DNA of 28,446 nt from a virus (IMGVR_UViG_2622736468_000007); one strand, 5' to 3'. Shown: positions 22,910-28,446, counted from the first letter of the stretch. The notes: generated by a model from the letters alone, not told the origin. Numbers and translations: made by a program.

Positions 22910-22921
22910 TCAATGTTTATG

Positions 22922-22946
22922 AACCTGCTTCGGCAGGTTTTTTTAT
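22922..22946 (+). terminator. intrinsic terminator after the repressor gene
   Basis: AACCTGC-TTCG-GCAGGTT followed by T7. Confidence 0.6.
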
Positions 22947-22948
22947 AC

Positions 22949-22976
22949 TTGACAATGTACCCCTGAGATACATAAT
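22949..22976 (+). promoter_or_regulatory. candidate strong sigma70 promoter (pL-like) flanked by TGTACC motifs
   Basis: TTGACA-N16-CATAAT; ATGTACCC occurs in the spacer and again just downstream. Confidence 0.4.
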
Positions 22977-23316
22977 GTACCCAAGCGAAACAACGAACAG
23001 GCAAGACGCCCACGAAGTAGCCGCCTGGGGCATATGAAGTCCAGGATGATTCGTTAGCAACAAAAAAGCGCCCTATAGGACGCTTCGCTCTTTAACAATC
23101 TGGAGATCCCCAACACTTAACGGGATTTTGGCTTCGGTTCTGGCGGTGAAGGACGAGGTTTTAAGGGTATATGATCCTCTTTCCATGTATATATAAATAC
23201 ATTCATTTAGTCATCTCAATATAGAATCCATTATTAATTCATACTCATAAAGCCTGTGTGACTTTGGTGATGGTGGTCTGGGCTTTGGAGGTACATGGTT
23301 AGGGATTATGGGAATT

Positions 23317-23796
23317 CTATTTGTCATTATTACACCTTTTTGACCGAGGCAAATCTCCAGCAAACCATGCGATAACGCTATGCATGAATGATATTTCTGA
23401 CTCATCAACACGTCCCAGCGCAATACAGGTCCGTTTGAACGCAGCATCTTGTAAAGATCTCCATGGATTACTATCAGCGTCTTGAACCTTTAAAAACCGA
23501 GTGCGTAGTTCGTCATCAGAAAGGGAGGAAAACTCAACAATCAACCTTTTATACTGTCGCATCTGTTCCTTTGATAAGCCAGCTTCCTGCCCAAATTGGT
23601 ATACCAATTGAAGCACCGACAAAATAGCTACAGATGCGCCAAAAATAAACATATTGCTATATGGCGCAAAAACAGAAAAGCCCAAGACAATGAGAACAAG
23701 AGTTATGCTCTTGTCTATCCGATTTAAAAGGGTGTAATTCATTTTCTCAAGAAAGAAAGAATAATGAATATCGAATGCTAGATCGTCTCGAGTCAT
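23317..23796 (-). CDS. small membrane protein with two adjacent TM helices and ~90-aa cytoplasmic tail (function unknown)
   Basis: 159 aa; RBS AAGGGAA; TM segments within ITLVLIVLGFSVFAPYSNMFIFGASVAILSVLQLVYQF. Confidence 0.75.
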   Translation of the reverse strand: MTRDDLAFDIHYSFFLEKMNYTLLNRIDKSITLVLIVLGFSVFAPYSNMFIFGASVAILSVLQLVYQFGQEAGLSKEQMRQYKRLIVEFSSLSDDELRTRFLKVQDADSNPWRSLQDAAFKRTCIALGRVDESEISFMHSVIAWFAGDLPRSKRCNNDK

Positions 23797-24971: not shown

Positions 24972-25005
24972 GTCTTTCAACTGCACAACCATTGGAGGGG
25001 TAGCA

Positions 25006-25200
25006 ATGAACAACTTAATGACAACTAAACAGGTCGCCGACTTCTGTGGTGTTTCAATATCAACAGTGCTTCGCTGGAACAGCATAAACCATAGAACAGG
25101 TAAGAAATATAGACCAGACTTTCCTGATCCTGATATAAAATCCTGTCCCAATAAATGGGCATCACACAAGATTTATAGGTTTGCGGGTATTATCGAATAA
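25006..25200 (+). CDS. AlpA-family phage regulatory protein / excisionase-like HTH
   Basis: 64 aa from ATG at 25006 (GGAGGGG RBS); TTKQVADFCGVSISTVLRW...FPDP pattern. Confidence 0.65.
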   Translation: MNNLMTTKQVADFCGVSISTVLRWNSINHRTGKKYRPDFPDPDIKSCPNKWASHKIYRFAGIIE

Positions 25201-25931
25201 CATTTATTTGTTTCGATGTTAGCTGACACATCTATGGCACAGAGCAAAACCGAATATGATTGCCCACTCTGTGCTAGTAGAAAACATAGATATCAACTAT
25301 CCGTACCAATCTGTGAGTATAGAATAAATTAATCTGCTCGCAACTAATAGCCTCTAACAGCCAATACAGTGCCACCGATGATACAAAAAACAATACTCCA
25401 AAAAGCGTCTGGTATTGGATTGTCATTACTAGCTTCCGAGGTGAGATATGCATTAAGCCAGGTGCGCTGGAAAAGTTATGTTTCCCTAATGGAATTGCCC
25501 ATGACTCAACATATTTTTTCTCTGTTGCTAGCGAATAGACCTAAAATGATAAGCACCATTAACATCAACAGCGCCCCTTGAGCTCTTCTTTTCGGTGAAA
25601 AGCCCATCATCAACGGCGCATTGCCTAACCCGAATTCTAGCCACCTTAGCCAGTATTTACCCCCTAGATACCAAATGCTTACCCCTCTATTTGCTCTGAT
25701 AATACTTTATTGCATAATCCCTCACTACATTAGACACTGCGTCAATCCTGCCTTCTATAGCTTGTTTTAACGCTTTCGGCACATTCCTCTGAACCAGCCC
25801 AAGATATGGCTGTTAAATTTTTACTTACATTCAAAAAAACTTTAACTTTTGCAATCAGATCATATGATGTTGTTAATGGTAATATTCTGAATCTAAAATG
25901 ACTTAAGAGTTCGTAGGTTAGAGGGACATGT

Positions 25932-26951
25932 ATGACTTCTGAAAGCAACAGAATTGGGAAGATGGGTGTAAACTACATAGAAGGTGTATTGACAAGATGG
26001 GGATGGGGATATCAATCAATTTCGCAAGAAAATGATGATGGGTTTGATGGCTTAATATATATAAGATCTAAACGATTTGAGGCGAAAGATAAAGAAAACC
26101 GGAGTAAACAATCTTGGGAGTTCACTGGTGGGTTGATTCATGTACAAGTAAAAAGTGGAGATACATACATTAGTAGTCGTAATAAAGATGAAATAAGGAT
26201 CAAAATAAAAAACCTCAATGAAAAGAAGAAAATATGGTCTAGATCGTCTATTCCATGCATACTTGTATTTGTTTTTTGGGATCATAATGAAGTTGAGTAT
26301 TCCTACTGGGCTGATCTTAAATCTGAATTAACTTATTGTGATAACAGTAGTACGCTAATAAAAATCCCCTTAAAAAATAGATTTATGAGATCCCAAGAGT
26401 GTAAGGGGCCTTTAAGACGACTTGCAAGGGTATCGGCCAACTATGCAGATAAGCCGCTGATAGATTTATCAAAATTTGACTCATTAAGTGGTAAGCTACC
26501 TACAAGTCTAAACAGTAACCTAAATTGTTCTTTGAAAAAGAAAGGTATTGAATTCTATCAGAAATGGCGATTAATTGGGGCTACAAACCCTTATTTTGGT
26601 CCTGTTCTAATAAACAGAACTGGTTGGAGTCATATAACTCGACGAAATCGCCCAATAGCAAGAATTGAAGCAAGCTTTAATTTGTTACCTTTAGCAGCAA
26701 GAATTATAAATGATGTATCTACATGGCGAATGTTAACACCCGTACGACGGTATGATAATAGAAAGGATGGTTATGTTTGCTTTATAGATTTCGTTGGGTT
26801 AACAGCCAAAGTGAATTTAAAGAATCGCAACTCATCAGAAGTTATGGTTGTGTTAAAAAGGGAGAGGAGGTATAAACAGGGTGAAGACTGTTCCTCTGCG
26901 AAAACAAGATTATGGTTTTACACTGTTTATGAACCTGGAAGAGGAAAATAA
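25932..26951 (+). CDS. AT-rich 339-aa ORF with N-terminal PD-(D/E)xK-like (DUF4365-like) nuclease-fold motifs; candidate defence protein
   Basis: RBS GAGGG; motif spacing G-x2-G...E...GW...DDGFDG...HVQVKSG...PCILVFV...YWADL; many AGA/AGG/ATA codons. Confidence 0.55.
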   Translation: MTSESNRIGKMGVNYIEGVLTRWGWGYQSISQENDDGFDGLIYIRSKRFEAKDKENRSKQSWEFTGGLIHVQVKSGDTYISSRNKDEIRIKIKNLNEKKKIWSRSSIPCILVFVFWDHNEVEYSYWADLKSELTYCDNSSTLIKIPLKNRFMRSQECKGPLRRLARVSANYADKPLIDLSKFDSLSGKLPTSLNSNLNCSLKKKGIEFYQKWRLIGATNPYFGPVLINRTGWSHITRRNRPIARIEASFNLLPLAARIINDVSTWRMLTPVRRYDNRKDGYVCFIDFVGLTAKVNLKNRNSSEVMVVLKRERRYKQGEDCSSAKTRLWFYTVYEPGRGK

Positions 26952-27222
26952 ATTGAGGCGGTACAATCGCGCTCAGGCTGTCCCAGACGTGATGCATAAC
27001 ACCACCGGTTCCAGAATTTAAGGATCTGGACCTTCAATTATGCGTGTACCGCCTTATGCAACAATACTATAAAATTATTAAACGTCAAGATGTTCAATAA
27101 GATTTGGGCTTTCATGCCACAACACGAAAGTTCATTTTATAACGTCTAAAGCTTTCACAATGTCCGCTTTTCGCAGCTCAAAGCGGACAGTCATATTTGA
27201 TTGTATTCTGGCTACTGGAGCC

Positions 27223-28446
27223 TCAGTTAGAGTCTGAGATAGTACAAGTAATGATCGATTCAACTCTCTCCCACCATGCCTGGTAGGCTTTACGCTGTTC
27301 TTCTAGATAATCGCTCTTATCATAAACTTGCCATACCCCTGGCAGTTTATGGCCGAGCATTATTTCTGCAATATGAGGCGCAGTAAGATCAGAAAAGTTT
27401 GTTCGTGCTGTTCGCCTCAAATCATGAAGAGACCAATGAGGGAATTGATACCCCAAACGCCGCCATGCGTACTGCATTAAATTGTAAGGCAGCGACTGCA
27501 ATGATGTTCGTCCAACGGGTTCCCTGCTTCCTTCCTTAGTAAAAAGCATATCGGAACCATTGTTCATAGAGATAACGTACTTTATAAGCTCTTCAACCGG
27601 TTCAATAATGGGGCGCTTTAGCGGTTCGCCTGTTATATCCCCTGTCTTATGTCGTTCTGGCGGTACAGTCCATACCTTATTAATGAAATCAAAATCATCC
27701 ACCCTAGCGGTAATTAGCTCTGAACTACGGCAGCCAAAATGCAGCAATAGTTTAATGAAGGCCCGGTATTTAGGAACCATTCGAGAACCATCGATCGCAG
27801 CATAAAGGATTTTAATTTCATCATGTGTCAGAAACCGTTTCTTCTGACCTTTACGGATATCCATATCTTTACCCGTGATATCCGACAGCGGGCGGGTTTC
27901 AATGAGCTTTCTCTTATAGGCCCAGACATGGGCCTGCTTTGCGTTAATTAGCAATCGGTCTGCTATTGCTGGAGTCTTAGTGCTAAGAGGCTCTAGGACG
28001 TCTAACCAATCATGCAATGTAGCTGCATCGTGAGGGATACTCCCGATTTTAGAGAACAGGTGCAGCTCAAACGAGCGGAGTATCTGTTCAGAACCTTTTT
28101 TATTTTTTACACAATATGCTTCATACCAGGCACGGATCACAGACTCTACCGTCATGGCTTCAGTAGCTTTTCGTTTTTCAGCCTGCTTGACCAATCGTGG
28201 ATTACGGTTTGACTCGAGTTCACCACGAAGACGGAGAACTTCTTCTCTGGCCTCTTTTAATCCAGTTGCCGGGTAAGTTCCGATATCAAGACGCTCACCT
28301 TTCCCTGCCCATTGATAACGATATTGGAACACTACGCGACCTTTCGGTGATACTCTGACAGACAGACCATCACGATCGGATTTAACCAAAACCTTATCAC
28401 GTTCCTTTCCAACGACTGAACGCAACCACGCATCAGACAGCGCCAT
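27223..28446 (-). CDS. int: tyrosine recombinase / integrase (P4-type family)
   Basis: 407 aa; start codon is the last three bases of the window; catalytic R (FGCRSSEL), HDLRRT, HIAEIMLGH and Y (DKSDYLEE). Confidence 0.9.
   Translation of the reverse strand: MALSDAWLRSVVGKERDKVLVKSDRDGLSVRVSPKGRVVFQYRYQWAGKGERLDIGTYPATGLKEAREEVLRLRGELESNRNPRLVKQAEKRKATEAMTVESVIRAWYEAYCVKNKKGSEQILRSFELHLFSKIGSIPHDAATLHDWLDVLEPLSTKTPAIADRLLINAKQAHVWAYKRKLIETRPLSDITGKDMDIRKGQKKRFLTHDEIKILYAAIDGSRMVPKYRAFIKLLLHFGCRSSELITARVDDFDFINKVWTVPPERHKTGDITGEPLKRPIIEPVEELIKYVISMNNGSDMLFTKEGSREPVGRTSLQSLPYNLMQYAWRRLGYQFPHWSLHDLRRTARTNFSDLTAPHIAEIMLGHKLPGVWQVYDKSDYLEEQRKAYQAWWERVESIITCTISDSN

Follow-up and report, generated by a model that had tools for sequence, protein, structure and literature searches.

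Positions 22910-28446 of a 28,446-nucleotide stretch of viral DNA (IMGVR_UViG_2622736468_000007, the whole of which is called the window here) very probably make up the early-left arm, together with the module for site-specific recombination, of a single prophage, defective and lambdoid, that belongs with phages cdtI, 2H10 and Ayreon and with the Stx phages that integrate in the gene prfC. The arm as such is already known and ordinary: it is the recombination arm of the prfC-integrating lambdoid phages, and the whole window, from ydfK to the integrase gene (int), would lie inside one prophage between prfC and yjjG. An earlier note, made from the sequence alone, had described these positions as a mosaic right arm in which a P4-type integrase, an AlpA-family regulator and cargo genes were appended to a lambdoid immunity region, or as a second small integrative element sitting next to a defective prophage.

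The integrase gene occupies 27223-28446 on the minus strand as an uninterrupted open reading frame (ORF) of 407 codons, the ATG of which stands at the last base of the window; it reads inward from the window edge, as the earlier note had observed. Pfam searches identified an Arm-DNA-bind_3 domain (PF13356, E 1.6e-16, above the cutoff), a Phage_int_M domain (PF22022, E 2.1e-07) and a Phage_integrase domain (PF00589, E 3.1e-17), which is the three-domain architecture (arm-binding, SAM-like and catalytic) of DUF4102-type integrases, and the translation and its alignment to P4 Int show a complete catalytic set (R240, K267, H341, R344, H366 and Y375). When 50,697 phage records were searched by tblastn, 33 phage genomes, all of them lambdoid, were found to encode an Int that is 96.6-98.0% identical at the amino acid level; these carriers include cdtI (a CDT-I converting phage), 2H10, Ayreon, PhiR63_1 and a series of Stx1a and Stx2c phages, and the next-best match is the Int of Gifsy-1 at 47% identity. 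The Int of the window has 98.0% identity to that of cdtI over 407 residues, 26% to that of P4 in an end-to-end alignment (E 7e-23), and 22% to IntS.

A published classification places all DUF4102-bearing integrases in one 'IntSXT' subgroup (PMC8138268; PMC2786100), inside which P4 and Sf6 form a tRNA-targeting cluster and the Int of cdtI groups with the integrase of the integrative and conjugative element (ICE) SXT, both being found at prfC (PMC8138268; PMC2786100). Because the window Int is 98.0% identical to that of cdtI, which was placed there by PMC8138268, it is assigned by sequence to the prfC-targeting SXT/cdtI cluster of the DUF4102-type IntSXT subgroup. The designation 'P4-type' thus holds for architecture and orientation but not for the cluster (SXT/cdtI) or for the target (prfC, with no tRNA gene). 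Insertion in prfC has also been reported for long-tailed lambda-like phages of the Stx1a/2c type (PMC10132054).

The attachment (att) sites were located in relatives. In Escherichia coli EC28, a full-length related prophage of ~46 kb, running from the tail fibres to int, sits between prfC and yjjG. The attP region of cdtI was turned to the orientation of the window and aligned to the att sites of EC28: its int-side half corresponds to attR at 97% identity, its other half to attL at 99%, and the two alignments overlap solely at a 14-bp core, GGGTGAGAAATAAT, with the switch of partners falling exactly at the core. On this alignment evidence, EC28 attL and attR between them rebuild the attP of cdtI. 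Read in reverse complement, the core encodes I-I-S-H-P and corresponds to prfC codons 17-21. On the side of prfC, a 5′ end borne by the phage takes the place of the original one (MTSLLAAEVAKRRTFAIISHP...), in agreement with the annotated N-terminus of EC28 PrfC, while the native stub of 23 codons stays beside int, annotated in RefSeq as a partial gene of 69 nucleotides. Stubs of this kind are annotated beside int in 13 of the 14 E. coli chromosomes sampled below, and are also present in Trabulsiella and Pantoea. Judged from these sequences (EC28 attL and attR compared with cdtI attP, and the stubs), insertion at the 5′ end of prfC with a new 5′ end provided by the element is the arrangement in the relatives.

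Across 23906-28446 the window and E. coli 2014C-3061 share 99.6% identity, and in that strain the core begins ~230 bp past the int ATG, which bears out the expectation that the attachment site would lie beyond 28446. At the opposite end, position 1 of the window falls, in the alignment, on the beginning of ydfK, at a point ~1.1 kb inward of the EC28 attL. From these alignments the window looks like an inner segment of a single prophage, bounded by gene ends, with the two att sites a short way past its edges, and no copy of the core with up to two mismatches is present within it. The tRNA or tmRNA gene that had been anticipated as the target was not found: a scan of the whole window for such genes gave none, the relatives have their core at the 5′ end of prfC, and they have no tRNA-Leu gene within 3 kb, the nearest ones lying past yjjG-rimI-holD-rsmC.

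Both att arms of the relatives contain TGTACA repeats, four of which are located 10-65 nucleotides upstream of the int ATG (17331-17388 in the stretch taken from the 99.6%-identical relative), and these are likely to be arm-type sites for the Arm-DNA-binding domain; in the window itself, TTGTACA words occur in a number at chance level only. TGTACA is a word common to the presumed cI operators and the att-arm repeats, probably by coincidence, with cross-talk conceivable. A role of the arm repeats as cI operators was considered and set aside because the repeats are kept in prophages that have an XRE-type repressor.

The order of the genes is that of known phages. In cdtI and Ayreon, the tail fibres and cargo are followed by the attP region, int and a cargo ORF, then by xis, DUF551, yfdS, yfdR, yfdQ and yfdP, all reading toward int, and farther on by cI in the same direction and cro diverging from it. 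The window has this order on the opposite strand, and its direct alignment to cdtI gives nucleotide identities of 93% for the cI region, 94-95% for yfdR, ~82% for xis and 97.7% for int. At 95% nucleotide identity or higher, int is present in 700 of 5426 complete E. coli genomes, nearly always as one chromosomal copy. Fourteen chromosomes, chosen from the top of the match lists and by even steps down them, were inspected: 2014C-3061, EC28, FDAARGOS_1297, EC25, A38, AHB12, W150, DG341-1, 1437, LR-64-1, UTI89, H10407, TW14425 and RM13514. The gene yjjG is just outside int in all of them, and lambdoid early-left genes (DUF551/yfdS/yfdR/yfdQ/yfdP) are directly inward of int in 13, with the repressor seen wherever the stretch reached that far; in the fourteenth, RM13514, an IS3 element and a deletion fuse DUF551 to a terminase gene. 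The comparison proposed earlier, of whether the block occurs independently of the lambdoid part, was thereby run, and among these 14 chromosomes no stand-alone form was encountered.

The small gene that had been taken for a member of the AlpA family (25006-25200, plus strand) encodes a helix-turn-helix (HTH) protein of 64 residues. It is read as the gene of an excisionase or recombination directionality factor (RDF), xis, because its product matches the excisionase family phrog_1553 over its full length (residues 1-63, E 2.6e-33) and is 88% identical at the amino acid level to gp34 of cdtI, an annotated excisionase, with no match to AlpA: Phage_AlpA (PF05930) was absent from the Pfam matches at E<=0.01, and Pfam gave only sub-threshold matches to HTH_17 (20 bits against a cutoff of 27), MerR and HTH_23. 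It also weakly resembles the Xis of Gifsy-1 (weak matches to Xis_Gifsy_1 and TIGR01764). One HTH helix is shared with P4 Vis (20 residues aligned, E 0.005), similarity to TorI was not detected, and a sequence search of PDB returned nothing meaningful. In the window, xis is co-oriented with cI and the early-left genes and converges on int from a distance of 2 kb; in Trabulsiella and Pantoea it directly abuts int. The 64-residue protein is therefore predicted to act as the excisionase/RDF of the prophage and not as an AlpA-type satellite regulator.

These results bear directly on the idea of a separate small integrative element, a P4- or CP4-like satellite or a phage-inducible chromosomal island (PICI) composed of int, AlpA and cargo, placed beside the prophage or in tandem with it. 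The P4-like orientation and DUF4102 architecture of int, the presence of a small HTH gene nearby and the low GC content of the cargo are in its favour, but it is extremely improbable, and any additional element of the P4, CP4 or PICI kind is rejected because the window has no internal core, because there are no replication or packaging-interference genes, and because the context in the sampled chromosomes is lambdoid. Pfam and PHROG searches of 22910-28446 identified no gene for replication, primase, capsid redirection or packaging interference. Between cI and int there are only the ECs1072-family, YfdR, Xis and DUF4365 genes, which amount neither to the P4 set (alpha primase, cI/epsilon, delta, sid and psu, in a unit of ~10 kb) nor to a PICI as usually delimited (a unit of ~8-15 kb with its own att pair, int, alpA, replication and packaging interference). 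The HTH gene is a phage excisionase gene; int, xis and the early-left genes are contiguous in deposited lambdoid phage genomes, of which this same int is the own integrase; and in EC28 the att sites bracket the entire lambdoid genome. The earlier note had said that its reading would fall if the flanks had a lambda-type att arrangement with this int as the phage's own integrase and if the block never occurred separately, and this is essentially what was found, except that int is inverted relative to lambda.

A second proposal concerns history and not function, and is compatible with a single prophage: the arm may be a recent recombinant in which roughly 23906-28446 was joined to the present immunity region by homologous recombination between two different lambdoid phages, resident at prfC or incoming, so that the junction would be a strain-specific mosaic and not an ancestral unit. 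This is somewhat favoured. Across 23906-28446, 2014C-3061 is nearly identical to the window, yet its repressor is of the XRE type and it lacks any match to 21928-23906; in SCPM-O-B-8794, cI is 100% identical and yfdR 94%, with a different (FlxA-like) cargo; the identity to cdtI is uneven from module to module, as the values given above for int, xis and the cI region show; and replacement and recombination of phages at prfC have been discussed (PMC10132054). The recombination breakpoints, however, are only approximate, and shuffling of modules, usual among lambdoid phages, yields no new type of element; genes of the yfdP-yfdR type also accompany IntS at argW in K-12. Comparison of the sequences shows mosaicism of the ordinary lambdoid kind alone, as the XRE-type immunity of 2014C-3061 beside the shared int/cargo/xis/yfdR block illustrates, and the mosaicism noticed earlier stands in that sense but not in the sense of an appended element.

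Some points weigh against the interpretation of the arm as the recombination module of a single prophage. The 14 chromosomes are a sample and not an exhaustive set, which leaves room for a rare stand-alone block. The positions of the att sites are deduced from relatives (99.6% identical on the right and 98% on the left) and not from the window's own flanks, and the functions ascribed to Xis, the operators and the arm-type sites are likewise deduced. In the collection of complete E. coli genomes, no record covers 80% or more of 1-12500, and 12500-28446 is covered to 81% at best. A promoter scan of one relative detected a site upstream of the prfC stub, but in the interval from the core to the int ATG it gave no consensus sigma-70 promoter. 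With the single-prophage interpretation retained, the correct label for the arm is the prophage's own Int/Xis module at prfC, not a satellite, a PICI or a tRNA-associated island, and the prophage is to be delimited by prfC on one side and by the stub of prfC beside yjjG on the other.

The convergent junction of xis and int (25252-27222) is a hypervariable cargo slot, delimited by a break in homology and by its GC profile. Homology to cdtI, Ayreon and EC28 ends 51 nucleotides past the xis stop and returns at the int stop (in other genomes, up to 24 nucleotides inside the 3′ end of int), and the GC content of the slot is ~0.36-0.39 compared to 0.43-0.53 nearby. The slot contains Dsr1 in four of the 14 sampled chromosomes (EC25, DG341-1, H10407 and TW14425), an anti-phage dCTP deaminase in EC28, a restriction endonuclease in LR-64-1, a LysR protein with a hydrolase and an MFS transporter in A38, the FlxA-like ORF in SCPM-O-B-8794, a dGTPase, a DUF6602 protein and a TPR protein in several matching records, and hypothetical proteins in other sampled genomes, cdtI and Ayreon. 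In Trabulsiella guamensis and Pantoea stewartii the slot is empty: the 3′ ends of int and xis overlap (tail to tail by 11 nucleotides in the ORF listing of Trabulsiella) and the prfC stub is upstream of int. A repeat search around the cargo of the window detected short repeats at chance level only and no flanking recombination sites.

In the window, the slot holds a gene on the plus strand (25932-26951) for a DUF4365 protein of 339 residues that is predicted to consist of a PD-(D/E)XK nuclease domain and a conserved C-terminal domain. The predicted PD-(D/E)XK fold finds support, with invariant residues D35, D36, D39, Q72 and K74, and the C-terminal domain of 190 residues has invariant residues of its own and the motif NRTGWSHITR. 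The protein has only weak matches in PADLOC, to Aga_REase (8.9e-09, in the nuclease domain) and PDC-M02A (8.8e-05), and a profile search of PDB with the DUF4365 family returned as its best match a DUF4365 chain at an E of only 0.14. The block that bears this gene is present in 22 E. coli records at 99% identity or more, and a homologue with 64% identity is located between gpS and gpV of a P2-like Enterobacter prophage (8001-9023 of the retrieved stretches). One lone DUF4365 gene is thus seen in variable slots of two unrelated phage types. The 680 nucleotides that precede the gene (25252-25931) contain no called gene, only small hydrophobic ORFs on the minus strand such as 25274-25453 (59 residues). 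The stretch may represent what is left of a gene, encode a small membrane peptide or serve in regulation.

A function of the DUF4365 gene in anti-phage defence is plausible from its sequence and setting, and a homing-type nuclease is the main alternative. An inert passenger or a selfish nuclease of the homing type, in place of a defence gene, is unlikely: the gene's counterparts in the slots of relatives are annotated as defence genes (Dsr1, dCTP deaminase, dGTPase and restriction endonuclease), the effector nuclease of SPARDA defence systems is a DUF4365 protein (PMC10810196), and the conserved C-terminal domain with its invariant residues suggests a sensor or regulatory part. A bolder proposal, offered tentatively and on balance a little more doubtful than not, is that the int/xis junction of the prfC lambdoid phages, present in ~13% of complete E. 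coli genomes, is an undescribed defence hotspot, and that the DUF4365 protein of the window is a stand-alone anti-phage nuclease related to the SPARDA effector domain and independent of Argonaute. The searchable literature gave nothing specific about a defence hotspot at prfC or at a lambdoid int/xis junction. In P2-like phages and P4-like satellites, defence hotspots (Rousset et al. 2022, PMC9122126) are likewise fixed intergenic spots with interchangeable, often low-GC anti-phage genes. The slot of the window differs from them in being the convergent int/xis junction of prfC lambdoid phages. The observation accordingly broadens the known concept of a hotspot and adds no new one, and it makes the slot a cheap and well-delimited place to mine for candidate anti-phage genes, in ~700 of 5426 E. 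coli genomes.

A mechanism may be proposed for the module. Int would recombine the 14-bp core in codons 17-21 of prfC, with the phage-borne 5′ end of prfC keeping RF3 intact after insertion and the original stub of 23 codons being left beside int. As int reads away from att and the arm repeats are close to its ATG, its expression would be uncoupled from pL and would depend on the sequence upstream of int itself. As this sequence overlaps the att arm, autoregulation of int is predicted, as in IntS of KplE1 (PMC2951348), where a dedicated int promoter that overlaps att and gives autoregulation is an established paradigm. Host read-through from the native prfC promoter might also feed int, because a promoter-like site of prfC and the stub point toward int with no terminator predicted between them (17552-17710 in the stretch of the 99.6%-identical relative); the insertion may thus put int under host read-through and prfC under phage-supplied sequence. 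As the last gene of the cI-repressed pL operon, xis would be expressed on induction only, so that directionality would be set by prophage induction, derepression leading to Xis and Xis to excision. The convergent int/xis junction would serve as a recombination-tolerant slot that collects morons.

The early-left arm adjoins a lambdoid immunity region, as had been recognized before, with CII-like, cro-like and S24-type cI genes. The CII-like gene (21343-21912, minus strand) was identified by family searches. The cro-like repressor gene of the YdaS/YmfT type (21944-22144, minus strand; phrog_35 and a weak Pfam match to YdaS_toxin) forms the left border of the immunity switch; the evidence for it falls on the C-terminal 66 residues of an ORF at 21944-22447, and its counterpart is the 201-nucleotide ymfT of EC28. 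An oR-like divergent control region, read from the sequence, follows at 22145-22234 and contains two palindromes, ATGTAC-N7-GTACAT at 22150-22168 and CTTGTACC-N5-GGTACAAG at 22199-22219, that are putative operators. The cI-type repressor gene (22235-22909, plus strand) encodes an N-terminal DNA-binding part and a Peptidase_S24 autocleavage domain (Pfam E 1.5e-26; phrog_4 E 1.7e-49), and its region is ~93% identical in nucleotide sequence to that of Ayreon as well as that of cdtI. Beyond it on the plus strand are a terminator-like hairpin (22921-22940) and a pL-like promoter found by consensus scan (22949-22976, TTGACA-16-CATAAT, an 11/12 match). An operator-like sequence within this promoter, ATGTAC-N7-ATACAT at 22955-22973, resembles the oR-like palindromes, and the site is a candidate for the cI-controlled early-left promoter.

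The cargo genes mentioned in the earlier note are indeed present: besides the DUF4365 gene, they are a YfdR gene and an ECs1072-family gene. The latter (23317-23796, minus strand; phrog_6315 E 2.8e-51, named after RefSeq annotation of relatives) encodes a phage-associated protein with two hydrophobic helices by eye, membrane-like in appearance, and is a moron between cI and yfdR, antisense to the presumed pL operon; it had no match in Pfam, PADLOC or NCBIfam and is absent at the same place from cdtI, Ayreon and EC28. Its position is comparable to that of sieB in lambda. A pseudogene at 23836-24352 on the plus strand is a frameshifted remnant in two overlapping ORFs without a family match, corresponding to a frameshifted hypothetical gene of 2014C-3061. 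The conserved early-left gene yfdR (24372-24971, plus strand; phrog_318 E 9.4e-110) encodes an HD-domain 5′-deoxynucleotidase and is 93-95% identical in nucleotide sequence to yfdR of cdtI, Ayreon and EC28. In comparison with these three, yfdP-yfdQ and yfdS-DUF551 are missing from the window (regions 23006-24172 and 24972-25005), and owing to these losses, xis begins 34 nucleotides after yfdR.

The prophage is defective, as had been stated before. Two ORFs (3197-4660 and 4657-5298) make up a split gene for the large terminase, which is abnormally close to a lambda-type tail-tube gene; an IS3-family element at 5511-6724 contains an ALIL frameshift pseudoknot (6327-6443), and the late region is interrupted by an IS66 element as well; the wreckage extends over 3197-5298, 5511-6724, 8090-10423 and 2133-2951. 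An Rfam scan gave no match in the right arm, its matches (IS009, ALIL and two cspA thermoregulator elements) being confined to the left and middle parts of the window. The two cspA-thermoregulator 5′ untranslated regions are full-length matches (11977-12407 and 16200-16639, minus strand) that belong to Qin-like cold-shock genes of the cspI/cspB type in the late/lysis region, and the match to the IS009 RNA family (1336-1534, minus strand) overlies a tail-fibre-assembly gene. Int, Xis and cI are intact, and with an intact Int even this crippled prophage might be excised or lost, or might recombine with phages that arrive at prfC, Stx phages among them.

The module can be set beside several known systems. 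Lambda and the window group have in common a heterobivalent tyrosine integrase, arm-type sites and a pL-controlled xis (both predicted for the window group), and an int that adjoins att at the end of the prophage. In lambda, however, the overlapping genes int and xis share one orientation, and transcription from pL runs through both toward att, with control by pI and sib (PMC2951348), whereas int in the window is inverted and cannot be read from pL; the lambda type of int-xis organization is absent from the group even where the slot is empty. In P4, int starts at 3926 and reads away from an attP core (4078-4097) and arm repeats that precede it, and the relatives of the window have the same geometry; both have an Arm-DNA-bind_3 integrase, but at the low identity given above and without genes for P4 replication or helper exploitation in the window. 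The target of P4 is a tRNA-Leu gene.

The IntS-TorI module of KplE1 (CPS-53), HK620 and Sf6 (Panis et al. 2010, PMC2951348) is similar in that int reads away from att and its upstream region overlaps an att arm, in that transcription of int and of the RDF gene is uncoupled, and in having a DUF4102-type integrase and early genes of the yfdP-yfdR type. It differs in that attP of KplE1 lies between torI and intS, which are at opposite ends of the prophage, whereas both genes of the window group are convergent at the yjjG-side end; the target of KplE1 is argW and that of the window group is prfC, the integrases are distant, and Xis is unrelated to TorI in sequence. IntSXT of the SXT/R391 ICEs acts at the same 5′ end of prfC, and the published classification (PMC8138268, PMC2786100) puts it, too, in the DUF4102-type subgroup and the 'SXT cluster', but SXT/R391 is a conjugative element and the carrier in the window is a lambdoid phage. 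Closest of all are cdtI, 2H10, Ayreon, PhiR63_1 and the prfC Stx1a/Stx2c phages. Relative to the cdtI group, the window has lost yfdP-yfdQ and yfdS-DUF551, has gained the ECs1072-family gene and is part of a defective prophage, and where the slot of cdtI holds a hypothetical protein gene of 710 codons co-oriented with int, that of the window holds DUF4365 on the strand of xis; the phages of this group resemble the window in Int (97-98% identity), in Xis (88%, cdtI), in gene order and orientation, and in their prfC target.

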